From Bacteroidia bacterium (GTDB taxonomy: Bacteria > Bacteroidota > Bacteroidia > AKYH767-A > OLB10): a stretch of DNA of 46,368 nucleotides. Location: NCBI GenBank assembly GCA_039914625.1, contig JBDSOU010000183.1, positions 1 through 46,368 on the forward strand, in the 5' to 3' direction. Shown here in pieces: positions 1-42,851 of the stretch; position 1 is the stretch's first letter; every line of letters begins with the position of its first letter. Under the pieces are notes generated by a model that saw only the letters and a list, made by a program, of their open reading frames with translations, made no database searches and was not told where the DNA came from. Both the position numbers and the translations under genes were made by a program.

Positions 1-3000
1 GTAATAGTTCCTCATCATTGCAATGCTTTATCACTTGCTGCATTTGCGTTGGTTTTTGAGTAGCTGCACCTTTATTTTTTTCAGCAATCATTTTCTGAAC
101 TAATCTGGCTCTTTCTTTTGATATATAGTCACGATTGGCTTTATCTGTTTGTTCATCAAAATAACGAACGCCATCCACATAGGTTTGTAAGACTCTTGCA
201 TAAATTGATAGGGGGTTATCAGACCATACAACAAGATCGGCATCTTTTCCAATTGTAATGCTTCCTGTTGTATTATCTATATGCAGAAGCTTTGCAGGGT
301 TTAGTGTAACAAATTTCAATGCTTCTTCTTCTGATACTCCACCGTACTTCACTGCTTTAGCTGCTTCCTGGTTTAAGCGTCTTGCCATTTCAGGATCATC
401 AGAGTTGTAAGCAACAATAACTCCTACGTCATGCATAATTTTTCCATTATAAGGAATGGCTTCATATACTTCAAATTTATACGCCCACCAATCTGCAAAC
501 GATGATCCGCCTGCTCCGTGCTTTTTCATTTTATCAGCAACTTTATATCCTTCGAGTATATGTGTAAACGTATTTACACGAAAATGAAATGTATCAGCCA
601 CGTGCATCAGCATATTGATTTCGCTTTGCTCGTACGAATGGCAAGTAATGAATCTTTTTGCATTGAGTATTTCTGACAATGCGTCTAACTCTAAATCCTT
701 TCTTGGTTTGATAAATTTTGGATTTGATTTTATAGTGGCACTATAATTTTTCCATGAATTCTCATATTCCCGTGCACGTGTAAAAGCATCCATGTAAACC
801 TGTTCCACACCCATGCGTGTCTGTGGATAGCGTGTAACATTATTATCGCCCCAGTTGCTTTGCTTTACATTTTCTCCCAATGCAAATTTTATAAAACCAT
901 CCCATCCTGCAAATTTCATTTCTTCAGGACTATGTCCCCAACGGAGCTTTATTAATTGTGTTTGCCCTCCAACAGCATTGCAGGAACCATGCAGCAAATG
1001 TGAACAGACAACTCCTCCTGAAAGCTGTCTGTAAATGTCTATATCATCGCATTCTAACACATCACCTATCCGAACTTCAGATGTAACCGACTGGGTACAT
1101 TCATTCACATCACCGCTTATAGCAATATGCGAATGTTCATCTATAATTCCTGATGATACATGTTTGCCTGTACCGTCAATTGTTTGCACATCTTTTAGTG
1201 CAGATACATTTATACTCTTGCCTACACGGGAAATTTTTCCACTTTGAATCAGCACATCTGTATTTTGCAAAATACCATCTGCTTCATTTGTCCACACCGT
1301 TGCGTTTTTTATTAAAACTGTTTTAGCTATTGGCAATTCTTTAAAACCGTAAGCCATGTTCGGATATAGTACATCACCAACAGTTGGCTTTTCTGTTTTT
1401 GCCGTATCCTTTTTTATTTCAGGTTTATATGCAGAAACAAATTTTGTTTTCCATTTTATCCATGTGCCATCAGCCAATTGTCCGTTTCCGATTAATGTTT
1501 TTAAACTGTCATTATCAATTGATCCTGTTAATCTAACTATTCCTTTGGGAGAAAATTTCTTGAGTTCAAACTGCAGATTGTATTGATCAGTAGAATAAGA
1601 AAAATTCACACTTGTTTTTGCAGTATCTCCGTTAATGCTTAATTGAGGATTTGCAATTTCTCCGGTTATATTCAGTTGTAACGAATTTATATTATCCATC
1701 AGCAACTCATAGTTACCTCGAATATCTTCCGGTCCGTAATTCTTAACTATATAACGCTTGCCCTGCACCCAGTTTTCGTAAATCACATTTTCTTTATCGA
1801 AAATATTTTTGGAAGTGATAATGAAATTAGCAATCATTCCTTTATTCAAACTCCCGATCATGTTATCTACACCGAGCAATTCAGCCGGAGATTTTGTACA
1901 GGCTTTCAGAGCTTGTGTCTCGCTCAATCCATAGTGGATTGCCTTAATAATATTTTTAATGAAGTCTTTTTTCTCTTTAATATCAACAGCAGTAAATGCA
2001 AAAGGAATGTTTTCTTTTTCCAAAGCTGCGGCATTGGCAGGAGCCATTTCCCAATGCTTCATTTCTTTAAGCGAAATATTCAATGCATCATAGGGATCAC
2101 TCATGTCATACGGGTCAGGAAAATTTACAGGAATAACTATCGGATCATTTGTTGCTTTGATTTCATTGATACGCTGGTATTCATCCCCGCCTCCTTTAAT
2201 TATATATTTAGTTTGAAACTCATCACCAATTTTATCTGCTCTCAAAATGGAAAGCTTATCTTTTGTTTCAAACAACTGGGGAAGCTTTTGCAAATTGTTC
2301 CATGCATCCAATGAAATGTTATACTCCAATGCTGAACCTCCGTCTTTGTACCATTGCGCATCAAGATACGTTTGGCGCAACAATGCAATGCTTCCCATTA
2401 ATGAACTTGGATAATCCTGAGAGGAGGAACCTTTGTCGAAAGAATAACATGCAGCCGCTTTATCTTTAATCACCAAATCATTTTCTTTTCCGTTTCCCGC
2501 TGAAACCAAAGCTGCGGATCCTCTTGCTATGCCATCCCTGTTTTGCGAAAGCACTGCACCGAAGCCCATGTTCCGCAATTCTTCGGCTTTCTTTTCATCA
2601 GCATTAAAATATTTTACCCCATCAATTTCAGGACGTATTGCCTGGTTCCATCCGTAAGCGCCTTTCGTATTTGATAAGAATTGTGGCGTGCGTTTATCAA
2701 CAATTTTTTTGTCAATATTAATTCCATAGTCGCTGACAATATCAATAAAAGAGGGGTAAATTGTTTTGCCCTGCATATCATACACAACTGCATCTGAGGG
2801 AATCTTTAAATCCCTTCCTGCATCTGAAACTTTTCCGTCACGAATCAGCAGTATTGCTGAATCCAGAACAGTTTTGTAATCAATAAAAATTTTTGCATTT
2901 CGGAATGCATACGTTAAATGACGTTCGTCATTCACTCCGTTAACCGGAAATGTTTTTTGAGAGAAAGAATAAAAAGGAAACAGAAAACAAATCGTTAATA

Positions 3001-10794: not shown

Positions 10795-12438
10795 TTATTC
10801 TTTTACAATTTTCTTAACCATCCGTTCTCCGTCTATATTTATTTCCAACAAATAAATTCCTTTTGATAAAAAATTAAGATCAAGAGCAGTTTGAAAATTG
10901 TTATTTATTATTTGGTAATTCTTCAAATAAACCGTTTGTCCTAAAATATTTTTTACTGTGATGGTTGCTTGTTTTATGTTTTGGTTTTGGATTATAATTG
11001 TAATTTCAGAAATAAAAGGATTAGGAGAAATGGAAATTGGAAGTTGGAAATTGGAAGTTGGATTAATTGAAGTTGTTAACGTGCTGTCGCAGAATTTTAT
11101 GATCCAGTAATCAGGACCTCCCCGGCTTGATTGTGTTTTATCTCCTCCGATTCCTTTGTTTACATAGTTTGCCATAGCATAACATCCATCTTTCGTTTCA
11201 ATTACTAATCCTATATAGGCTCTTCCCGGAGTGTGAAGTGTTTTATCCCACTGCTTGTTGCCAATTGAATCTGTTTTAATTATCCATGTTTGATCGAGTC
11301 CAAGATTGTATTCTGTTTTGTCTCCGCTGCTGTCTGATTCAGAATATCCTCCGAGAATATATCCACCGTCAGAAGTCAATTGAACAGAAGAAAATACATC
11401 TTTACTTCCTCCGCCAAAATCCTTATCCCATTGTTTGTTGCCAAGAGAGTCTGTTTTTACAATCCAATAATCACTATCCAGAAATGATCCCCACGTATTT
11501 TGTGTTTTATCTCCGCTGCTGTCAGAGTTTGATGGTCCTCCGAGGAAATACCCTCCGTCAGCAGTTTGGAGCAAAGAAATAATCCCCTCACCTTCTGTTC
11601 CGCCATAATCTTTATCCCATTGTTTATTGCCAAGCGAATCGGTTTTTACAATCCAGAAATCATAATTTCCCCACGAATTTTCTGTTTTATCTCCGCTGCT
11701 GTCTGATATGGAAGAACCTCCGAGGATATATCCGCCATCAATAGTTTGATGTACAACATAAAGCCCCTCTCGGTTTGTCCCGCCAAAATCTTTATCCCAT
11801 TGTTTGTTCCCGAGCGAATCTATTTTTATAATCCAATAATCAGTCAGCCCCCAATTGATCTGAGTTTTATCTCCCCCGATGTCGGAATAAGAAGTGCCTC
11901 CAAGTATGTATCCCCTGTCTGCAGTTTGCTGCAATGAATTTAGTTCATCACCGTCAAATCCACCGAAAGTTTTATCCCATTGCTTATTGCCAAGAGCATC
12001 AATTTTAACTATCCAATAATCAGAAGGACATCCGGCAGTACAATTAGTATCCTGAGCATCTTGTGTTTTATCTCCGCTGCTGTCAGAAAAAGAAAATCCT
12101 CCGAGAATATATCCTCCATCATCAGTTTGCTCTGCGATAGTAAAAAAATCTCCTTCCGTTCCTCCGAAATCTTTATCCCATTGCTTATTCCCCATCGAAT
12201 CAGTTTTTACTATCCAGTAGTCATTGTATCCCCAGATGTTTTGCGTTTTATCTCCACTGCTGTCGGAATCAGACCACCCTCCTAAAATAAATCCACCATC
12301 AATTGTTTGCTGAAAAGAATAAAGTATATCATTGTCATTGCCTCCAAACCTCTTATCCCACTGTTTCACCAAAGGGTTTTGTGCAAAAAGAAAAACGGAG
12401 GATAAAATTAAAAGAAAGAAGAGAGTAGATTTTTTCAT
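10795..12438 (-). CDS. T9SS type A-sorted beta-propeller repeat protein
   Basis: Signal peptide; seven KQWDK-containing repeats (DYWIVKTDSLGNKQWDKDFGG...DGGYILGG); CTD ISPNP...GIYLL...KKIVKE. Confidence 0.92.
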   Translation of the reverse strand: MKKSTLFFLLILSSVFLFAQNPLVKQWDKRFGGNDNDILYSFQQTIDGGFILGGWSDSDSSGDKTQNIWGYNDYWIVKTDSMGNKQWDKDFGGTEGDFFTIAEQTDDGGYILGGFSFSDSSGDKTQDAQDTNCTAGCPSDYWIVKIDALGNKQWDKTFGGFDGDELNSLQQTADRGYILGGTSYSDIGGDKTQINWGLTDYWIIKIDSLGNKQWDKDFGGTNREGLYVVHQTIDGGYILGGSSISDSSGDKTENSWGNYDFWIVKTDSLGNKQWDKDYGGTEGEGIISLLQTADGGYFLGGPSNSDSSGDKTQNTWGSFLDSDYWIVKTDSLGNKQWDKDFGGGSKDVFSSVQLTSDGGYILGGYSESDSSGDKTEYNLGLDQTWIIKTDSIGNKQWDKTLHTPGRAYIGLVIETKDGCYAMANYVNKGIGGDKTQSSRGGPDYWIIKFCDSTLTTSINPTSNFQLPISISPNPFISEITIIIQNQNIKQATITVKNILGQTVYLKNYQIINNNFQTALDLNFLSKGIYLLEINIDGERMVKKIVKE

Positions 12439-28034: not shown

Positions 28035-28193
28035 GTTTTTAAAAATTTAAGGAGCACGAAAATAAGAAAAGAAATTCAGTGGGCTTTTATTTTTAAGAAA
28101 CAAGGTTGTAACAGAATTACATATTGATGTTGGAAAAAGATAATCCTTCCGGGCAACTATTCTTTATTTTTGAAGCCGGTAAATTTCCGCACT

Positions 28194-29996
28194 ATGAAAA
28201 AATACAATTTGTTACTTCCTGCTTTCCTGTTCATGCTGGTTGCATGCAACCCGGAAATAAAAGAAAAAAATAATGAAACAATGGTTTCTGAAAACAAGAT
28301 CAGCGAATTTTTCCATCATTATTTTGATGAGCGCATGAAACTTTTTCCGCTCGAAGCTACAGCCAATGGCATTAATAAATACAATAATTTAATGCCCATT
28401 GACATCAGCGATTCGTACCGCGATCAGATCAAATTATTTTACCAGAGCACACTCATTGAGCTGAATAATTTCAAACGCGATTCGCTTTCGGAAAATGACA
28501 AGCTGAGCTATGACATTCTCCAATGGGATTTGCAAACGGGTATTGAAGGTTTCGGTTTCCCTGATAATCTTATTCCCATCAACCAGTTCTGGAGCCTGCC
28601 GCTTACGTTCGCTCAGCTTGGTTCGGGAAAAAGCAACCAGCCTTTTAATACGGTTGAGGATTACGAAAATTTTCTTGGCCGTGTCAACAGTTTTCCGGCA
28701 TGGTGCGATACGGCAATTGTAAACATGAAAAAAGGAATTGTAGTGGGAATTACTAATCCGAAAATCTTAATGGAACGTGTGCTTCCGCAAATGAATGCCA
28801 TGCGGGTGAAAGATATAACGCAAAGTGTTTTCTATATGCCGGTAAAAAACTTTCCCGCCACGTTCTCTGACACAGATAAAAAACATTTGGATTCTTTATA
28901 TACCAATGCTATAGTTTCACAAATTAATCCTTCCTACCAAAAGCTATATGACTATATCAAAGACGAATACATTCCGCATTGCCGTACCAGCATTGGTATA
29001 GCAGAATTGCCAGGGGGAAAAGAACGCTATAACTATCTTATAAAATACTGGACCACTACCACGCTTTCATCCGACTCTGTTTTTAATCTCGGCATGAGCG
29101 AAGTAAAAAGGCTGCACGATGAAATGGAAAAAATAAAAACCGAAACCGGGTATAAGGGCAACCTCGTTTCGTTTTTCAAATACATGAACAGCGATAAAAA
29201 GTTTTTCCCTTTTACCACTTCGCAGCAGGTGCTGGATTCATTCAGCATCTTACAAGAGCGCATGAAACCCCAATTGAGTAACCTGTTTGACAAAGTTCCG
29301 CAATCGCGTTTTGAAGTACGCCAGACGGAAAAGTTTCGTGAAGCGAGTGCAAGTGCCGAATATAACCAGGGCACTGCCGATGGTTCGCGTCCGGGAATTT
29401 TTTATGTTCCTATACCGGATGCAAAAAAATTCAACACGTATGCTATGGAAGATTTGTTTTTGCACGAAGCTATTCCCGGCCATCATTACCAGAATATGCT
29501 CACTATAGAAAATAATGACCTGCCGCAGTTCAGGCGGTATCTATGGTATGGCGCTTATGGCGAAGGCTGGGCGTTATATACAGAGTCACTCGGAAAAGAA
29601 TTGGGGCTTTATACCGATCCTTACCAGTATTTTGGCGCGCTGAGCGAAGAAATGCACCGTGCCATCAGGCTTGTAGTGGATGCGGGTATGCATACAAAAG
29701 GATGGACACGAGAACAGGCAATTAAGTTTTCGCTCGAAAATGAAGGCGAAAGCGAAGAAAACATTACTTCAGAAATTGAACGCTATATGGCGATCCCCGG
29801 TCAAGCATTGTCTTACAAAATAGGCCAGTTAAAAATACGCGCGCTGCGCAAAAAAGCCGAAGAAGAACCGGGCGCTGCTTTTGACATCCGCCAGTTTCAT
29901 AATGAAATACTGAGAGACGGTTGCCTGCCGCTTTCAGTGCTTGAAACTAAAATGAACCTGTGGATAGAGAAACAAAAGGTAAATAAAAAGACCTAA
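28194..29996 (+). CDS. DUF885 family lipoprotein (metallopeptidase-like)
   Basis: Lipobox LVAC, HEAIPGHH, EGWALYTE, RLVVD, PGQALSYKIG. Confidence 0.92.
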   Translation: MKKYNLLLPAFLFMLVACNPEIKEKNNETMVSENKISEFFHHYFDERMKLFPLEATANGINKYNNLMPIDISDSYRDQIKLFYQSTLIELNNFKRDSLSENDKLSYDILQWDLQTGIEGFGFPDNLIPINQFWSLPLTFAQLGSGKSNQPFNTVEDYENFLGRVNSFPAWCDTAIVNMKKGIVVGITNPKILMERVLPQMNAMRVKDITQSVFYMPVKNFPATFSDTDKKHLDSLYTNAIVSQINPSYQKLYDYIKDEYIPHCRTSIGIAELPGGKERYNYLIKYWTTTTLSSDSVFNLGMSEVKRLHDEMEKIKTETGYKGNLVSFFKYMNSDKKFFPFTTSQQVLDSFSILQERMKPQLSNLFDKVPQSRFEVRQTEKFREASASAEYNQGTADGSRPGIFYVPIPDAKKFNTYAMEDLFLHEAIPGHHYQNMLTIENNDLPQFRRYLWYGAYGEGWALYTESLGKELGLYTDPYQYFGALSEEMHRAIRLVVDAGMHTKGWTREQAIKFSLENEGESEENITSEIERYMAIPGQALSYKIGQLKIRALRKKAEEEPGAAFDIRQFHNEILRDGCLPLSVLETKMNLWIEKQKVNKKT

Positions 29997-30004
29997 TCTT
30001 TTTC

Positions 30005-30069
30005 CCGCAGATTTCGCTGATACCGCAGATTCTTTTAAAACCTCTCTGCGCAATCTGTGTGATCTGCGA
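30005..30069. repeat. Inverted pair of 9-bp tandem repeats (CGCAGAT family)
   Basis: ccgcagatt tcgctgata ccgcagatt ... tctctgcgc aatctgtgt gatctgcga. Confidence 0.7.
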
Positions 30070-30091
30070 GGGCATTTTTCGCAACAAGGTT

Positions 30092-30192
30092 TTATTCAAT
30101 AACTATCTTCCCGCTCCCTATAATTTTTTCTTTGCTAAGGAGCCGGTAAAAATAAATTCCATCACTCAGCTTTTCCACATTTATTTCTTTTA
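30092..30192 (-). pseudogene. Orphan T9SS CTD-coding fragment
   Basis: Reads KEINVEKLSDGIYFYRLLSKEKIIGSGKIVIE*; 30148-30186 matches 30816-30854 at 38/39 nt. Confidence 0.85.
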
Positions 30193-30202
30193 TATAGAAT
30201 TC

Positions 30203-30526
30203 TCACGGCAATGAAATTAATTTAACAATTTGCTCAATAACTTTTTGATGTTTCGTTATAGAAATTTTTCCGGCAGTGGAAATAATATTAATTCTGTGAG
30301 CAGTAAATATTTTGTTTGGTCTTATATGGCTCTCCAATGGAAGCTTACCGCTTTCAAAATCCGAATCCTCTAATTCAATTTCAAGTCCGTCATATTTTTG
30401 CTTGCTTGTAATCTGGCATAACATACTATCATCACCGCCCTAATCGGCAATGATCAATGCAGGTCTGCGTTTTGCTCCCGATAAATCAGAAAAAAGAAAA
30501 GGAATAATGTCTACTTCGCCTTTCAT
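30203..30526 (-). pseudogene. PemK/MazF-family toxin with a premature TAG
   Basis: MKGEVDIIPFLFSDLSGAKRRPALIIAD*GGDDSMLCQITSK...HIRPNKIFTA; stop at 30440-30442. Confidence 0.88.
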
Positions 30527-30720
30527 AAATTTTTCCAGGCATTATCTTCTTCTTCCGAAAGCCAGTCTTTGGCAAGCGATTTTTCACTCGCAAGCGACAA
30601 CTCTTTCGATTCGTCAAGCAACTCGGATATGATAATCTTTTTTTCCTGGGGTGTGCATTGACGCACCCAGTTTATGATCTGCTGAAGCGTAACAGGTAAA
30701 TTATGTTCAATATTTTTCAT
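30523..30720 (-). CDS. Putative antitoxin
   Basis: LASEKSLAKDWLSEEEDNAWKNL tail; 4-nt ATGA overlap with the toxin start. Confidence 0.85.
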   Translation of the reverse strand: MKNIEHNLPVTLQQIINWVRQCTPQEKKIIISELLDESKELSLASEKSLAKDWLSEEEDNAWKNL

Positions 30721-30759
30721 AAAACAAAAGTAATGAAATTGAATATTATTTTTCTATCC

Positions 30760-32409
30760 TTAATGCTGCACAACAACCTTCTTACTTATCACTCCTTCTT
30801 TCATTTTCACTTGCAAAAAATAAATTCCGTCACTCAGCTTTTCCACATTTATTTTCTTTTCAAATTTCCCTGCTGCGATTTCTTCTTTTTCAACATAAAT
30901 TTGTTTGCCTAACGTATTATATATACGTAATTCAATGTATTGTTTTGATGATGATTGAAATGAAATGGTGAGGGAGGAGTTTGTGGGATTTGGAAATACA
31001 AGAAGTTCATTGGCGAAATTAATTTCCCTGATATCTGTGATTGTCGGACATACTCCACATGTGGTGTCTATAGTATATTTCCAGAGATCATTTCGGGGGG
31101 TAGTTAAACCATTATTAGAACCTCCGAATAAATAAAGATGACCATTATTATCCGTCCATCCTATAGCGCCTCCTCTGCCGTTAGGTTTATTTGTTGGACT
31201 TGAAACCCCTATTGTTCCCCATGAACCCACAGGAGATGGTATATTGGATCCGGATTGCCATATCCATTGATTAGTTGAGATACAATACATCCACAAATCA
31301 TTCCATGTTAGAGGGTACTGCCCCCCGCCAAATAACCAAAAATTTCCGCGTTGATCTTTCCATGCAGCTCTGTTTTCATATCTCGCACCCGGTATATTAG
31401 CAGATGAAGTTACGCATTTTGTTCCATACACTCCTGCTGCATTTACTGTTGTGCTACCCCCCATCCACTTCCAATTGTTTGTAACCGGATTATATTTCCA
31501 AAGATCATTACAGTTAGATGACTGATTACCATAATTAGTATTGCCGCCAAAGAACCAGAATTTTCCATCACTATCTTTCCAATGCCCATAAGATCCTCTC
31601 GCACCAGGTGTATTTGCAGGACTCTCTACTCCCAAAGTACCATATACGCCTATAGCATTTGTCATATTGCTTCCTTTCATCCAAGTCCATTGATTGGAAT
31701 CTATACTATACCTCCATAAATCATTCAGCTGTGTCACTATCGTAGTTGCCCCACCAAATAGCCATAAATTATTAAAATCATCTGCTCCCAGTGCAAGTGT
31801 TTCAGACCGGTGACGAGGATAATTTGCAGTATCAGGTACGCCTTGTATGCCATAAACACCCGGAGCCAGAGAACTATTAGGACCTTTTACCCAAACCCAT
31901 TCGTTTGTTGAAATATCATACTTCCATAAATCGCTGTACATATTGTTAAGGCCTGCACCGCCAAACAGCCACAGGTTATTCTGGTTATCAACCCATGACG
32001 CAATGGCAAAACCGCGTGAAGGTGGATTATTTAATAATGAAGGAATGCCCTGAATACCATAGCTGCCTGAATCATTAGCAATGCCTGGCCCTTTCATCCA
32101 CGTCCATTCATTACTTGATATCTCAAATTTCCAAAGATTATTTAAAGTAACACTGCCTACTACCCCTCCGAATAACCAAAAATTCCCATTCATATCTGTC
32201 CATTCACAAGGTTCATATAATGAAGGAGGATTATTTGTCGGGCTTGGAACTCCCTGCACTCCATAATTACCCGATTGGTTAGGAATACTGTCTCCTTTTA
32301 TCCATACCCACTCCCCCGCCTGCGAAAAACATTCACCAAACAAAAAATAAAAAATAAAAAGCCCCCTAACCCCCAAAGGGGGAATGAGGGATGTGATTAT
32401 TTTTTTCAT
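30760..32409 (-). CDS. T9SS type A-sorted Kelch-like beta-propeller protein
   Basis: Six WxWxxG...W.FGG...NDLW blades; CTD VFPNPT...GIYFL...KKVVVQH. Confidence 0.92.
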   Translation of the reverse strand: MKKIITSLIPPLGVRGLFIFYFLFGECFSQAGEWVWIKGDSIPNQSGNYGVQGVPSPTNNPPSLYEPCEWTDMNGNFWLFGGVVGSVTLNNLWKFEISSNEWTWMKGPGIANDSGSYGIQGIPSLLNNPPSRGFAIASWVDNQNNLWLFGGAGLNNMYSDLWKYDISTNEWVWVKGPNSSLAPGVYGIQGVPDTANYPRHRSETLALGADDFNNLWLFGGATTIVTQLNDLWRYSIDSNQWTWMKGSNMTNAIGVYGTLGVESPANTPGARGSYGHWKDSDGKFWFFGGNTNYGNQSSNCNDLWKYNPVTNNWKWMGGSTTVNAAGVYGTKCVTSSANIPGARYENRAAWKDQRGNFWLFGGGQYPLTWNDLWMYCISTNQWIWQSGSNIPSPVGSWGTIGVSSPTNKPNGRGGAIGWTDNNGHLYLFGGSNNGLTTPRNDLWKYTIDTTCGVCPTITDIREINFANELLVFPNPTNSSLTISFQSSSKQYIELRIYNTLGKQIYVEKEEIAAGKFEKKINVEKLSDGIYFLQVKMKEGVISKKVVVQH

Positions 32410-32445
32410 GGATTAATTTGAAAGGCTAAAGGTAAGGGTTATTTC

Positions 32446-32473
32446 TTGACATGCATATCATTTCATAACTTAC
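32446..32473 (+). promoter_or_regulatory. Candidate promoter reading into the 21-bp array
   Basis: TTG (32446) ... TAACTTAC (32466-32473), a variant of the -7 motif. The divergent candidate TACCTTTA (32427-32434, minus strand) serves the Kelch gene. Confidence 0.4.
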
Positions 32474-32479
32474 AACGTA

Positions 32480-33025
32480 ATTAAAGCCGTTAACACCAAA
32501 AGAAAAGCAACTGACAATAAAATAAGAGTCATTAACAGAACAATTATTAAAGCTCGCATCAAAAGAAGAATCACTGACATTGCAAGAACAATCATTAACA
32601 GGAGCAGAAGGTTCACTGACAGCATCAGAACATTCATTAACGGAACCAGAAGGTTCGTGAACATGACCAGAACATGCGCAGACATTAAAAGAACTGCCGT
32701 TGACAAAGCAGGAACAATCATTAACAGGAGCAGAAGGTTCACTGACAGCATCAGAACATTCATTAACGGCAACAGAAGGTTCACGAACATGACCAGAACA
32801 TGCGCAGACATTAAAAGAACTGCCGTTGACGAAGAAAGAACTATCATCAACAGTTTCAGAAATATCAGTGACAATGTTCCCCAAATCATTAACAGAAAAA
32901 GAAGTAGCATTAACATGGACAGAAGTATAGTTGACAAAGAAAGAACTATCATCAACAGTTTCAGAAGTATCATTAACAATGCACGATGTATCATTAACAA
33001 TAAAAGAACTATCGTTGACAATTGA
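32480..33025. repeat. 26 x 21-bp degenerate tandem array with a 126-bp higher-order duplication
   Basis: Units parse without indels to consensus AGAA-NNN-TCR-YTR-ACA-NNNNN; 32585-32710 is repeated at 32711-32836. Confidence 0.95.
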
Positions 33026-33117
33026 GCTTTCTGATCATCATTATCAATAATTCTTGAAAAAAGGTAACCCGGCAGCCTTTTTTACGTAACATCTGCTAAT
33101 CATTATTAAAAGCACAT

Positions 33118-33816
33118 ATGAAAAACACATCTCTTATCAAAATCAAAAAAGAAACTTCGCTGGTAAAAGTTACAGCTCCAAAGAAATCAAAAGCCGTTTC
33201 TATGGATTCAATTAATTCTGTTGACGAAAAAATCAACAAAATATGGGCAATGTTTGAAAACCAGCTTCAGCGAAATTATGACCTGATGGGTTTTATTGAC
33301 AAACAGCAGCAGGTTATTGAAAAAGTAATGACTGCCGGTTATACAAACATGCTGATTACTAATAATACTCACGAAAATAACGTTCCGGTGAATACTAAAA
33401 AAGAAGAGGAAGAAAAAACTATTGAACTAATGTCGTTCGAAAAATTGAAGAGCTTAACAAACTCGTACAAAAAAATAATTACTTCCTCCAATCGTATTGA
33501 TGCTATTCACAGTTTGCTCCATATCTTGCACACTCTAAACTCTCTCGGAAAGGCAAAACCCGAACAATTATTTATTGCTTGCGGCATGATTGAATCAACA
33601 GGTTTCAGGTTAACCGGAAGGCTCCGGTCTATGGAGCTGATTAAATACAACGGTACTACCCGCGAAGGCGCTTATGCAATGACTGAATTAGGAAAAGATT
33701 TTCTGGATGAAAAAATTAAAGACGCAGACGAATATCGCAACCGTCTAAGTTCACATGCCAAATATTATGTTGAGACGAACATCCGGATGCCTCTTTTCCC
33801 TCAGCAGCAATCTTAA
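33118..33816 (+). CDS. Orphan protein with a C-terminal winged-helix DNA-binding domain
   Basis: ILHTLNSLGKAKPEQLF..CGMIESTGFRLTGRLRSMELIKYNG....GAYAMTELGKDFL fits a wHTH with a YxxTExG wing. Confidence 0.75.
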   Translation: MKNTSLIKIKKETSLVKVTAPKKSKAVSMDSINSVDEKINKIWAMFENQLQRNYDLMGFIDKQQQVIEKVMTAGYTNMLITNNTHENNVPVNTKKEEEEKTIELMSFEKLKSLTNSYKKIITSSNRIDAIHSLLHILHTLNSLGKAKPEQLFIACGMIESTGFRLTGRLRSMELIKYNGTTREGAYAMTELGKDFLDEKIKDADEYRNRLSSHAKYYVETNIRMPLFPQQQS

Positions 33817-33974
33817 AGCATAGCTTAGTTCATCATTCTGCTGGGAAATTTTATTTCTCCATATTTTCCTATTCTTTAAAATTACCCATTCGTTTCTTCA
33901 TAAAATTCCGGATAAGCTTCCCCTGTTTCCATTAAAAATGATTTGAAAGAAATTTCCCTCTTTCAACATGGAAC

Positions 33975-34004
33975 TTTGTACTTTCAACTTTTTTTCTACT
34001 TTTG
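33975..34004 (+). promoter_or_regulatory. Sigma-A promoter for accB-accC
   Basis: TTTG (33975) ... TACTTTTG (33997-34004). Confidence 0.65.
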
Positions 34005-34029
34005 GTAATTCATACTAATCATTTTTTAT

Positions 34030-34521
34030 ATGAACAAAAAAGAAATTGAGGATCTTATCCGCTTTGTTTCAAAAGCAGGCGTGAGCGAAGTGAGCCTTGA
34101 AACCAAGGAAATAAAAATTACCATTGTAAACTCCCCACGCGCTCCTGAACATGTTACCAGCCATGTGCATGCAGCACCGGCACCGGCAACAAATGCCCCG
34201 GTTGCGCCTGTGGCTGCACCATCACCTGCCGCTGTTGCAGCGCCTGCAAATGCTGAGTCTGCCGCAAAAGATGAATCGAATTTACATGTGATTAAATCGC
34301 CCATGATCGGCACCTTTTATCGATCTGCTTCGCCCGACAAGCCCAACTTTGTAAACGTAGGCGATGAAATAAAACAAGGCAAAGTCCTGTGCATCATCGA
34401 AGCCATGAAGCTCTTCAACGAAATTGAAAGCGATGTTTCAGGCAAGATCGTGAAAGTCCTTGTGGACAATGCTTTACCAATCGAATACGATCAACCTTTG
34501 TTTTTAGTCGAACCTTCTTAA
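34030..34521 (+). CDS. accB: Acetyl-CoA carboxylase biotin carboxyl carrier protein
   Basis: SPMIGTFY, EAMKLFNEI, Ala/Pro-rich linker. Confidence 0.97.
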   Translation: MNKKEIEDLIRFVSKAGVSEVSLETKEIKITIVNSPRAPEHVTSHVHAAPAPATNAPVAPVAAPSPAAVAAPANAESAAKDESNLHVIKSPMIGTFYRSASPDKPNFVNVGDEIKQGKVLCIIEAMKLFNEIESDVSGKIVKVLVDNALPIEYDQPLFLVEPS

Positions 34522-41447: not shown

Positions 41448-41474
41448 ATTTTCGTTTAAATTGTATTTTTGACC

Positions 41475-42851
41475 ATGGCTGAAAAACCCAACTTTACCGC
41501 TCGACTTTTTCAACCCGTTAATTCTTTTTCAGCCGATGCATTCAGAATGCTTTTCGGGCTTGCCATGATATTTCAATTTATAAGCTTCATAAAATTCGAT
41601 TTTATCCGCGTGGGAATTTTATCTCCACGGTTTCATTTTACTTACGATTTTTTTGATTTTGTAAAACCGCTTTCACCGGCTTTCCTCAACCTGTTGATAG
41701 TATTAATGCTTGCCGGAGCTTTTTTAATAACTATTAATAAATTTTACAAAGCGGGAATTCTTCTTTTCGCTATATCATTTTCTTATCTATTTTTTCTGGA
41801 CCAAAGCTATTATAACAATCATTTTTACCTGATCATTTTACTTTCTATAATTCTATTCTTTTACAAACCTGTTTCAGCAAAAGACGGTAATAGATTAATT
41901 CCTCAATGGTTTATCCGGCTGCTTCAATTTCAGGTCATAGTAGTTTATTTCTATGGAGGACTTGCAAAACTGAATCATGACTGGCTGGTGGATTGCCAGC
42001 CTATGAAAACGTTGCTCGAAGTCAATGCAGCTAATTCCTTGTTCCCTGCCCTGCTCAAAAGTAACTTTGTGGTTTATTACCTGACCTATGGCGGAATTGT
42101 TTTTGATTTGCTGATCGGTTTTCTACTGCTTTACAAACCTGTATTGAAAGTTGCAATCATTCTGAATATATTTTTCCATCTGACCAATTTTTTCATATTC
42201 AATCTTGGCGAAGGGGGAGATATAGGAATTTTTCCGCTGCTTATGATTTTTACCAATGTGTTGTTCATTGAACCCGAAAAGCTGCAGCAATTAGTTTCGA
42301 AATATTTACGTGTAAAGGCTGAAAATGATGCTAAAAAACAAAAAAACAAAAACAAAACATTTTCTCATATTATAGATTTCTCTTCAAAAAAAAATATAGT
42401 GCTTTCCTGTCTTACATGCTATATTTTATTTCAACTGCTGTTTCCTTTCAGACACTTTGCTTATCCCGGCAATACAGACTGGACGGGTAAAGCACAGCGT
42501 TTCTCATGGCGAATGAAGGTATATGTTAAAACGGGGTCAGTGCGGATTACAGCGAAGCAATCTGCAAATGATGAGCCGCTTGAAATGGATTGGAAAAAAC
42601 ATATTAACCAGGTACAGTATGCTGCCATGCGTGATCACCCTGAAATGCTTCTTCAATTTGCTGACTATTTGAAAAAACTTTCCGTACAGCTGGGGTTTAG
42701 AACTATTATTCTCAATGCAGAAGTACAGGTTTCCATGAACGGGCGGCCAAAACAATTTGTGGTGGACCCTTCGCTTGATTTGCTGGCTGTAAAAAGAAAT
42801 CCATTTAAACATGCTGAATGGATCCTGCCTTTAAAAAATAATCCCAAATAA
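41475..42851 (+). CDS. HTTM-domain / vitamin K-dependent gamma-carboxylase-like membrane protein
   Basis: FRMLFG, YYNNHFYL, VYFYGGLAKLNHDW, IGIFP, RFSWRMK, SMNGRP. Confidence 0.9.
   Translation: MAEKPNFTARLFQPVNSFSADAFRMLFGLAMIFQFISFIKFDFIRVGILSPRFHFTYDFFDFVKPLSPAFLNLLIVLMLAGAFLITINKFYKAGILLFAISFSYLFFLDQSYYNNHFYLIILLSIILFFYKPVSAKDGNRLIPQWFIRLLQFQVIVVYFYGGLAKLNHDWLVDCQPMKTLLEVNAANSLFPALLKSNFVVYYLTYGGIVFDLLIGFLLLYKPVLKVAIILNIFFHLTNFFIFNLGEGGDIGIFPLLMIFTNVLFIEPEKLQQLVSKYLRVKAENDAKKQKNKNKTFSHIIDFSSKKNIVLSCLTCYILFQLLFPFRHFAYPGNTDWTGKAQRFSWRMKVYVKTGSVRITAKQSANDEPLEMDWKKHINQVQYAAMRDHPEMLLQFADYLKKLSVQLGFRTIILNAEVQVSMNGRPKQFVVDPSLDLLAVKRNPFKHAEWILPLKNNPK

Follow-up and report, generated by a model that had tools for sequence, protein, structure and literature searches.

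A phased array of 21-bp repeats upstream of a winged-helix gene family in a Bacteroidia genome: a candidate operator platform within a wider repeat system

The stretch of Bacteroidia DNA analyzed here (46,368 nucleotides, called the window) carries a tandem array of 26 units of 21 bp, held in phase and conserved position by position, upstream of a gene whose product shows a MarR-like winged-helix fold in its structure model, and the genes of this protein family are linked with arrays of 21 or 42 bp at other loci. We tentatively favor the reading that the array is a phased operator platform for the neighboring regulator, shared with a divergent gene for a T9SS Kelch protein, and regard it as plausible though still short of probable. 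This pairing of array and protein accounts for just a fraction of a much larger repeat system in the same genome.

Laid out in 21-bp steps, the sequence gave 26 units with zero indels. On the plus strand the unit reads AGAA nnn TCRYTRACA nnnnn, and the per-position counts over the 26 units place the conserved blocks at unit positions 1–4 (AGAA) and 8–16 (TCRYTRACA) and the variable blocks at positions 5–7 and 17–21, with C15 (26/26) and A14 (25/26) near-invariant. Mismatches to AGAANNNTCRYTRACANNNNN were absent from 6 of the 26 units, numbered at most one in 18/26 and at most two in 23/26, and were most frequent in the first four units (3, 2, 1 and 6). Units 6–11 (32585–32710) recur as units 12–17 (32711–32836) with 7 of 126 positions differing, unit 18 equals unit 23 at a separation of 105 bp, and TRF reported periods of 21, 42, 63 and 126 at the array, the last with 2.2 copies and 92% matches. 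An earlier sequence-only reading had described the indel-free units, the alternation of conserved blocks with variable blocks of 3 and 5 nt, the duplication of units 6–11, the recurrence 105 bp apart and an array end about 90 bp before the gene, and all of these were borne out. The array fills 546 bp, the bulk of a 708-bp divergent intergenic region, and lies 92 bp from the ATG at 33118 (+) and 70 bp from the ATG at 32409 (−) (Table 1). It is therefore about as near to the divergent minus-strand gene as to the winged-helix gene, and the array might serve the former as well. The divergent product matched Kelch_4 (E 1.9e-32) and Por_Secre_tail (E 2.9e-17) in Pfam, and a 21-bp array was found upstream in 2 of the 5 paralog places of the Kelch family in the genome.

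Table 1. Features of the array locus, in window coordinates
Feature	Coordinates	Strand	Basis or remark
Divergent Kelch-repeat protein, 549 aa, with T9SS C-terminal sorting domain	30760..32409	-	Pfam
Spacer, array to divergent gene start codon	32410..32479	.	70 bp
Tandem array, 26 x 21-bp units	32480..33025	.	Register, position counts, periodicity, TRF, motif mismatches
Higher-order duplication within array, 2 x 126 bp	32585..32836	.	Units 6–11 repeated as units 12–17
Spacer, array to winged-helix gene start codon	33026..33117	+	92 bp, AT-rich
Winged-helix protein gene, 232 aa	33118..33816	+	ORF, structure model, fold search

The lag-21 identity over the array was 0.59, against a mean of 0.281 (sd 0.024, maximum 0.390) for windows of the same length elsewhere in the 46 kb, and it was 0.23 at lags 20 and 22. 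The lag-7 identity within the array was also 0.23, under the background, so that the unit has no 7-bp sub-period. This is the longest 21-bp array in the 4.0-Mb genome, and its per-position conservation is over-dispersed (dispersion 3.23, p < 0.003), making it the sole array with p ≤ 0.01 among 79 tested. A 16-nt array motif had 20 matches in the array and at most two on any other contig strand of the genome; with no second cluster of it in the genome, a regulon, if there is one, would be confined to this locus. A search for a second copy of the array in the genome gave nothing beyond one 32-bp match (E 1e-3), and terminal inverted repeats bounding a mobile unit were not found. Of 150 pattern stretches matched in a scan of genome contigs for related loci, none was confirmed. 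The window stretch was present in four DNA metagenome runs, all from one study, with no RNA run listed; the contigs of these four runs break within the array and show no length variant, and their four base differences are the differences between the two 126-bp copies.

In the structure model of the neighboring protein (pLDDT 73.9), the N-terminus is disordered and carries the conserved motif MKNTxLI, residues 29–81 form a long helix of 53 residues followed by a disordered K/E-rich linker, and a single MarR-like winged helix, not two, spans approximately residues 107–205. The fold search returned 6pco_A (Z 10.6), 2nnn_A (Z 10.5) and the MarR chain 5h3r_A (Z 10.0), with model residues 105–205 aligning with MarR-family chains at Z 9–10.6 (Foldseek E 4.8e-4). 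Fold model and fold search thus confirm, at the level of prediction, the C-terminal winged helix-turn-helix proposed from the letters. By sequence, no Pfam or NCBIfam family lay above cut-off; the sole Pfam signal was PF25213 at 15.6 bits (cut-off 35), a distant homolog gave HTH_27 at 14.8 bits (cut-off 22.2), and the MarR, MarR_2 and HTH_27 models gave no match above their curated cut-offs. Pfam, NCBIfam, PHROGs, PADLOC, a PDB sequence search and the ESM Atlas together returned only generic or sub-threshold winged-helix matches. Literature searches that paired 21-bp arrays with winged-helix proteins or with Flavobacteria-like groups, or iterons with Flavobacterium, gave nothing on this protein family.

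The protein had been called an orphan, which did not hold: the same genome encodes two full paralogs (37% and 30% identity) and one partial paralog, and homologs occur in relatives. The family is nevertheless rare, with 81 clusters in 1.84 billion, and confined to the order of this genome among the genomes searched; f1 was present in 4/82 genomes, with three to four copies in G000 and G081. The family-invariant residues G162 and R164 fall within the helix-turn-helix stretch, and the recognition helix is conserved. Five long forms (P0051, P0092, P0057, P0073 and P0063) translate in-frame N/D-rich heptads between the conserved coiled coil and the winged helix, and in the one locus with DNA examined this heptad stretch is itself a 21-bp array. 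By our reading, a majority of the homolog genes are monocistronic, their stop codons followed by terminator-like hairpins. The neighbors of subfamily B are apparently rRNA methyltransferase-like and gltX-like ORFs, judged by eye from their translations, and offer no functional clue.

Arrays accompany the family closely. The 10 close-homolog loci first examined come from one metagenome contig and from G000, G001, G004 and G081. In each of them, autocorrelation of the 700 bp upstream peaked at lag 21 or 42 (lag-21 z 4.3–8.6), and the arrays end 43–189 bp before the start codon, always 5' of the gene. The sequence-only reading had named the upstream regions of homologs as the place where its proposal could fail, and at these loci it did not. 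The two full paralogs in the same genome are each directly preceded by a different 21- or 42-bp array. As background, 86 of 2828 genes (3.0%, from a crude gene call) had a true 21-bp array in that position. Two loci found later are weaker, with only a faint array in G145 (0.42, z 2.2) and a G143 copy that is a pseudogene with 4 stops and no array. The unit consensus varies between homolog loci, and of nine profiles compared with that of the window array, three reached p < 0.05 (range 0.017–0.64); as these comparisons are mostly non-significant, no common core motif is claimed. Block-wise conservation was significant in 3 of the 10 family-linked arrays, and the L040 array carries TAACTGA-like cores every 21 bp.

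The 21-bp lock corresponds to two helical turns, which would set the conserved blocks of every unit roughly on the same face of the helix. We propose that the winged-helix protein would bind once per unit at the conserved TCRYTRACA and AGAA blocks, that its N-terminal helix may let it spread cooperatively from unit to unit, and that the bound protein would set transcription of its own gene and probably also of the divergent gene. The scheme resembles the action of a MarR-type local regulator between two divergent genes, except that the operator would have grown into a platform of many sites. The closest folds are indeed MarR-family winged helices, and, as with such regulators, the gene is divergent to its neighbor with candidate sites in the shared intergenic region. 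MarR operators are typically palindromes; the candidate operator here, by contrast, is 26 direct repeats at 21 bp rather than one or two palindromes, the protein has no MarR Pfam match, and in the model the dimerization helices are replaced by the 53-residue N-terminal helix and the disordered linker. This reading is favored by the linkage at 10/10 loci against the 3.0% background with arrays always 5', by the DNA-binding fold of the linked protein, by the DNA-level constraint and over-dispersed conservation of the window array, and by the clustering of the 16-nt motif in that array only. It is weakened by arrays that far outnumber the family genes and occur in sampled genomes without the family, by unrelated multi-copy families that are also headed by arrays, by unit consensus sequences that differ between loci despite a conserved recognition helix, by the weaker G145 and G143 loci, and by the small share of family-linked arrays with significant block-wise conservation. 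Among the three options of the sequence-only reading (a binding platform, a processed repeat RNA and a decayed heptad-repeat gene), the platform is the best, with the status of a candidate.

A possible, if somewhat unlikely, alternative is that the array is a generic lineage-wide cis-element, one of many intergenic 7- and 21-bp arrays, which the neighboring protein does not read. Its reader could be a nucleoid protein or the recombination machinery, it could act through intrinsic in-phase curvature, or it could be no more than a product of repeat expansion; in that case the winged-helix family would be just one among several accessory, multi-copy families with arrays in front of them. The genome does contain 135 lag-21 clusters, 91 of them true 21-mers, and its period spectrum peaks at lags 7 (175 clusters), 14 (93), 21 (135), 42 (106) and 63 (72), with 0–5 clusters genome-wide at the control lags 17, 19, 20, 22, 23 and 25. 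Most of the lag-21 clusters (127/135) lie outside ORFs of at least 100 aa, 29 of the 91 arrays abut a contig end, each array has its own unit, and array flanks are common only to a few small groups. Set against these 91 arrays are three full and one partial family genes, and about 90 other arrays have no such winged-helix gene nearby. Among eight other genomes sampled (65–200 kb each), arrays were also present in genomes without the family, with 3 in 200 kb of G003, 1 in 171 kb of G007 and 1 each in the outgroups G146 and G154. At least five unrelated multi-copy families have upstream arrays, in 9/16, 5/7, 3/4, 2/2 and 2/3 places, counts that are biased upward since it was the arrays that led to these families. 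An earlier study already found intergenic heptamer arrays, their function unknown, in a few Bacteroidetes, Cyanobacteria and Beggiatoaceae, and proposed that they act in rearrangement or are recognized by an unidentified binding protein (PMC4679880). For these arrays (TAACTGA and others; cyanobacterial STRR-type) it describes many intergenic tandem arrays per genome and contigs ending in repeats, and the present genome likewise has numerous lag-7 clusters. The window unit differs in being a genuine 21-mer built of conserved and variable blocks, with no 7-nt unit, and linkage to a DNA-binding gene family does not figure in the sections of that study consulted (PMC4679880). BrickBuilt of Porphyromonas gingivalis, a 23-nt minisatellite in a MITE situated 49–591 nt from coding sequences and having promoter activity, is likewise an intergenic tandem minisatellite of approximately two helical turns in a Bacteroidetes genome (PMC4596501). 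BrickBuilt is one sequence dispersed 19 times with a leader, a tail and inverted ends (PMC4596501), whereas the arrays here each have their own unit, lack terminal inverted repeats and rarely share flanks. Because of the 91 arrays genome-wide, the relatives without the protein and the other families headed by arrays, the proposal of a self-contained two-part array-plus-protein system was not sustained, although its core, the recurring pairing, was upheld at the 10 loci first examined. Against a purely generic element stands that same linkage, always 5' of the gene, whereas, genome-wide, convergent genes enclose 11 of the 55 fully flanked arrays; in addition, the linked family is DNA-binding, and the contrast of conserved and hypervariable blocks in the window array points to sequence-specific reading and not to shape alone.

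The remaining readings are less probable, and for an RNA-level element, in which the array would be transcribed as a long leader or separate RNA with units that are processed or serve as sites for an RNA-binding protein, we consider the chances low. A post-transcriptional role has been proposed for heptamer repeats near start codons in Beggiatoaceae (PMC4679880), and no convincing promoter was found between the array and the winged-helix gene, so that the transcript could begin within the array or before it. A scan for sigma-70 sites returned 9 where 5.5 were expected, and one consensus-like match at 33015–33044 does not by itself indicate function; a Bacteroidetes-type −7 motif had no consistent site in the leaders of 10 family loci, and a leader hairpin at approximately 33057–33083 was not significant (RNA fold z = −0.73). 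Rfam matched nothing in the array (best E 0.75, outside it), which leaves the processed repeat RNA of the sequence-only reading without support. Also against RNA, the best profile matches between homolog arrays lie mostly on the strand opposite relative to the gene, so orientation is not conserved, and arrays between convergent genes and variable parts of merely 3 and 5 nt fit it poorly. A CRISPR-like or guide-RNA array was rejected on the short variable blocks and the lack of an Rfam match; the only cas-like signal was an 11.8-bit match, at chance level. That the array is a heptad-repeat coding sequence is, in our view, very unlikely, whether as a small gene of its own or as the decayed remains of an in-frame linker such as the long forms carry. 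Three frames are open across the array, the R/Y variation (positions 10, 11, 13 and 16) reads as synonymous in a plus frame E-x-S-L-T and mostly so in an open minus frame S-x-x-V-N-D, and the V-N-D heptad resembles those that the five long homologs translate. However, the fully synonymous plus frame contains 5 stops, and the two fully open heptad-like frames have no ATG, GTG or TTG near their 5' ends, their first starts lying well within the array at 32657 (+) and 32884 (−); the third open frame, with a TTG start at 33021, would encode 183 aa of almost pure L/M/I/V. The openness itself follows from the fixed bases, as by our reading of the counts only one codon per unit could be a stop in the open frames. 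The information profile lacks 3-base periodicity, with third positions such as C15 most conserved, Pfam gave no match, the 202-aa minus-frame translation had no homolog among 1106 candidates, and the L040 and L017 arrays carry 8–13 and 4–30 stops, closing all gene-strand frames while keeping their phased motifs. The array is thus non-coding DNA with constraint at the DNA level, since the conserved runs cover all codon positions. The decayed heptad gene suggested earlier consequently fails for the window array, with no start, no 3-base periodicity and no homologs for the open frame searched, and survives only in that long family forms do translate such a stretch. Least probable, and in fact highly improbable, is an iteron origin or centromere, that is, an initiator–iteron or partition-site/adaptor module of an integrated element. 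ParR/parC and TubR/tubC, of which TubR is a winged helix, also have short direct-repeat arrays upstream of a gene for a small DNA-binding protein, here a candidate array coat, but no partner NTPase gene is present (accB and accC lie downstream and the Kelch T9SS gene upstream), and neither a plasmid nor a phage carries the locus. Iteron systems, including the lambdoid origin in the O gene, have phased repeats of about 20 bp beside or inside the gene of the putative binder (PMC7466680); the window array (26 x 21 bp) has the form of their 17–22-bp phased direct repeats, the long forms that translate their array parallel the lambdoid case, and each paralog has its own repeat sequence and the family a patchy multi-copy distribution. 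Yet these systems have 4–6 units against 26 here, many similar arrays in the genome lack such a gene, no Rep family was matched in Pfam or NCBIfam, and the model has one winged helix, not two. PHROGs families of replication function gave no match, and most homolog genes appear monocistronic. The context is chromosomal housekeeping (aspS, DUF885, accB, accC, MarC and RNase H) and gives no hint of a mobile element: among the 18 flanking ORFs scanned, all for housekeeping or secreted proteins, there is no integrase, relaxase, ParA/ParM/TubZ or phage gene.

Returning to the operator-platform reading, a bolder extension, which we consider unlikely, is that the order uses 21-bp 'two-turn' arrays as general cis-elements heading accessory cassettes such as T9SS cargo and multi-copy families. 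The coiled-coil winged-helix family would be their dedicated reader, each paralog polymerizing on the phased sites of one array to form a chromatin-like regulatory layer, and some members would carry the array in their own gene, translated as a heptad linker.

If the protein does read the array, it would be a natural bacterial regulator whose operator has grown to dozens of helically phased sites, and the reader family would be one with no Pfam or NCBIfam model, some members of which translate the array within their own gene. Whatever the role of the protein, distinct 21-bp arrays number approximately 90 in this 4-Mb Bacteroidota genome and heptamer arrays about 175; nearly all are intergenic, and many of them precede accessory genes present in several copies. 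Earlier work recorded heptamer arrays and left them unexplained, and a gene family tied to 21-bp arrays offers a testable handle on the function of such repeats.

The array consists of 26 units of 21 bp that stay in register when the sequence is printed in steps of 21. Per-position counts showed conservation at unit positions 1-4 (AGAA) and 8-16 (TCRYTRACA), with C15 present in 26/26 units, A14 in 25/26 and C9 in 23/26, and the counts and information profile showed positions 5-7 and 17-21 to be near random. At most one mismatch to the unit pattern was found in 18 of the 26 units, the first four being the most degenerate. Lag-21 identity (base identity at an offset of 21) was 0.59, with 0.23 at lags 20 and 22, against a background of 0.281 ± 0.024 (maximum 0.390) in windows of the same length taken from other parts of the 46 kb, and TRF reported periods of 21, 42, 63 and 126. 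The indel-free phasing and block-wise conservation noted in the sequence-only reading were thus borne out, as was the 126-bp duplication of units 6-11 as units 12-17, with 7 differences between copies; unit 18 also equals unit 23. This array is the longest of its kind in G000, the genome in which the window is contig C75, and its 16-nt motif forms no other cluster there by motif scan or BLAST. The centres of the two conserved blocks lie ~9.5 bp apart, which, with a unit repeat of two helical turns, places all conserved blocks on one side of the DNA. In a crude over-dispersion test that assumes a fixed register, this was the only one of 79 arrays with over-dispersed per-position mismatches at p ≤ 0.01 (dispersion 3.23); at p ≤ 0.05, 3/10 family-linked arrays stood out versus 3/78 other G000 arrays.

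Three open frames span the array, as a result of the fixed bases of the unit. Two resemble the heptads of the long-form proteins and were rejected as genes, having no start near their 5' ends and first starts well inside the array. The third has a TTG start at 33021, yet its 183 residues are almost all L/M/I/V. Five stops interrupt the frame that would make all R/Y variation synonymous. Conservation lacks a 3-base period, would-be third positions being among the best conserved; array translations had no Pfam match, the 202-aa minus-frame translation had no homologs among 1106 candidates, and Rfam had no match in the array. On these grounds we treated the array as non-coding DNA, and the earlier suggestion of a decayed heptad-repeat gene became unlikely. 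In the arrays of two homologs, L040 and L017, stops close every gene-strand frame and the motifs nevertheless keep their phase, which suggests that the constraint acts on the DNA itself.

The 232-aa protein was modelled (pLDDT 73.9) with a disordered N-terminus, a helix at residues 29-81, a disordered K/E-rich linker and a winged helix at ~107-205 that matched MarR-family structures (Z 9-10.6; Foldseek E 4.8e-4), in agreement with the C-terminal wHTH read from the sequence. Sequence comparison with Pfam, NCBIfam, PHROGs, PADLOC and the solved structures gave no match. The family is rare, with 19 matches in a word-indexed set of 5.8 billion and 81 clusters (E ≤ 1e-3) among 1.84 billion representatives; it occurs at E ≤ 1e-12 in 44/146 genomes of the order and, in an even class-wide sample of 401 genomes, only in G000 and three sister-family genomes. 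The gene is not the orphan it was taken for, since G000 carries two full paralogs and relatives carry homologs. Subfamily A, the type of the window protein, is accessory and multi-copy (about 215-230 aa, N-terminus MKNTxLI), and subfamily C comprises long forms of 270-357 aa. Subfamily B (L008-L035) joins a ENEELYHQYNHLMIRN-type coiled coil to a winged helix. It is a conserved single-copy gene, present in the majority of genomes from sister family f3 (28/31 in one search, 39/54 in another) and usually flanked by rRNA-methyltransferase-like and gltX-like ORFs, named from their translations.

Both full paralogs in G000 are closely preceded by an array of period 21 or 42 bp, a different one in each case. 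Across ten subfamily A/C loci (three in G000, two in G001, one in G004, three in G081 and one on a metagenome contig), lag 21 or 42 was the top lag in the upstream 700 bp at 10/10, with lag-21 z of 4.3 to 8.6, and the arrays stop 43-189 bp 5' of the start codon, always on the 5' side of the family gene. The expectation that upstream DNA of homologs would show 21-bp periodicity therefore held at all ten, with the reservation that kin genomes are not independent. Of two loci found later and used as an out-of-sample test, one (G145) has an intact gene but a phased array that is no more than faint (0.42, z 2.2), and the other (G143) has no array and a pseudogene with four stops. Subfamily B reached z ≥ 4 at only 2/27 loci, both from 7- or 14-bp repeats; at B locus L021, 31 copies of a 7-bp repeat lie upstream. 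By our own reading, terminator-like hairpins follow most homolog genes. With crude ORF calls as genes, a true 21-bp array (one lacking a heptamer sub-period) was found within 700 bp upstream of 86/2828 G000 genes (3.0%) and of 3/3 assessable family genes.

Coordinates of the array, neighbouring features and related loci
Feature	Location	Strand	Description
Array	window 32480-33025		26 x 21 bp
Kelch-repeat gene	window 30760-32409	minus	549 aa, T9SS sorting domain; start 70 bp from array
Winged-helix gene	window 33118-33816	plus	232 aa; start 92 bp from array (~90 bp in the earlier reading); accB, accC next
180-bp tandem repeat	window 11311-11846		2.9 copies, within secreted-protein-like ORF 10795-12438 (minus)
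Similar 180-bp repeat protein	L017 1-1098		downstream of G004 homolog
HTTM ORF	window 41469-42851	plus	HTTM and vitamin K-dependent gamma-carboxylase lumenal domains (E 2e-52, 2e-40)
About-310-aa family	G000 C195:10338-11276, C46:3160-4101, C57:17528-18451, C282:1270-2205, others (L155-L162)
L041	G000 C107:1-459		fourth, partial family member, long-form type, at very start of 1970-bp contig
L016	G001 C312, ORF 937-2010		357 aa, 21-bp array in frame
L040	G001 C497, oriented 1677-1907		array with TAACTGA-like cores every 21 bp
L045	G081 C1:56000-72000		family paralog among ORFs with PAAR-like N-termini

The main correction concerns the proposal of a self-contained array-plus-protein system, since the array type is genome-wide. 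Scanning the whole 4.0-Mb G000 assembly for lag identity of at least 0.52 over 105 bp yielded 135 lag-21 clusters, with 0-5 at lags 17, 19, 20, 22, 23 and 25; the spectrum peaks at lags 7 (175), 14 (93), 21 (135), 42 (106) and 63 (72), with 28 and 35 low. Arrays of both period 7 and period 21 are almost all intergenic and mostly carry a unit sequence of their own. A total of 127/135 lag-21 clusters lie outside ORFs of ≥ 100 aa, and 91/135 have no heptamer sub-period. The consensus units of these 91 are distinct from one another except within a few small related groups, and 29 abut a contig end. The C107 break may lie at or near the array of L041. True arrays also occur in sampled genomes without family members, and the 21-bp arrays are thus independent of the winged-helix family. 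Across all the sampled genomes, control lags gave 0 nearly throughout, with one lag-25 cluster in G001.

True 21-mer arrays in other genomes, sampled at 65-200 kb each
Genome	Family members	True 21-mer arrays
G081	A x3, B	5.5 per 100 kb
G004	A x1	2.5 per 100 kb
G003	none	1.5 per 100 kb
G001	A/C x2	1.5 per 100 kb (65 kb sampled)
G007	none	0.6 per 100 kb
G066	B only	0; 21 heptamer clusters in 200 kb
G146 (other order)	none found (401-genome class sample)	1 in 77 kb
G154 (other order)	none found (401-genome class sample)	1 in 121 kb

In G000, 70 genes are preceded within 700 bp by a 21-bp array, and several unrelated multi-copy families are among them. One group comprises 11 co-clustering proteins, including the window's Kelch protein, whose common part we take to be the T9SS sorting domain. 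The about-310-aa family has a CarboxypepD_reg-like C-terminal domain, an uncharacterised N-terminal part and apparently no signal peptide; smaller families are of about 210 aa, about 255-325 aa and several other kinds. Counting every G000 place, arrays precede 9/16 (the about-310-aa family), 5/7, 3/4, 2/2 and 2/3 members, values biased upward because the families were found via arrays. The Kelch family has an array before 2/5 members, so the window array may serve the Kelch gene too.

The array takes up the greater part of the 708 bp between the two divergent genes, in a window of housekeeping and secreted-protein genes with no mobile-element genes among 18 ORFs scanned. In 7/10 relatives (L080-L089) a FabH-like ORF, named from its translation, lies immediately 5' of accB; in the window, at 28170-34030, that arrangement gives way to DUF885 together with the Kelch gene, array and winged-helix gene. 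If the FabH-like reading holds, the latter three would form an accessory insertion in G000. Elsewhere, the surroundings of L045, as read from translations, suggest a T6SS-type cluster.

In subfamily C the array itself appears to be translated, based on the in-frame array of L016 and the common plan of five long representatives (P0051, P0092, P0057, P0073 and P0063), namely a conserved N-terminal coiled coil, N/D-rich heptads (such as x-x-V-N-D-N-x) and a winged helix, in that order. Lambdoid phages offer a precedent, as the gene of a binder there likewise contains its binding sites (PMC7466680).

Several explanations of the array were weighed, all on computational evidence; no RNA sequencing run contains the locus. 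A coding role is less likely given the frames described. A role at the RNA level is also less likely, and the same holds for an iteron or centromere. The main rival, which we consider possible though doubtful, is a generic, lineage-wide cis-element class or repeat expansion read by something else, under which the winged-helix family would be only one of several behind arrays. Like the heptamer arrays described by MacGregor (PMC4679880), this class would have no assigned function; one such heptamer, TAACTGA, is described as an intergenic direct repeat of Beggiatoaceae, Cyanobacteria and some Bacteroidetes. The one-sided conserved blocks, the DNA-binding neighbor from an array-tied family and the constant 5' position lead us to tentatively favor, as the best-supported mechanism, one in which the 232-aa protein would bind once per 21-bp unit, spread along the array via its long helix, and thereby control the promoter of its own gene and perhaps also that of the Kelch gene.
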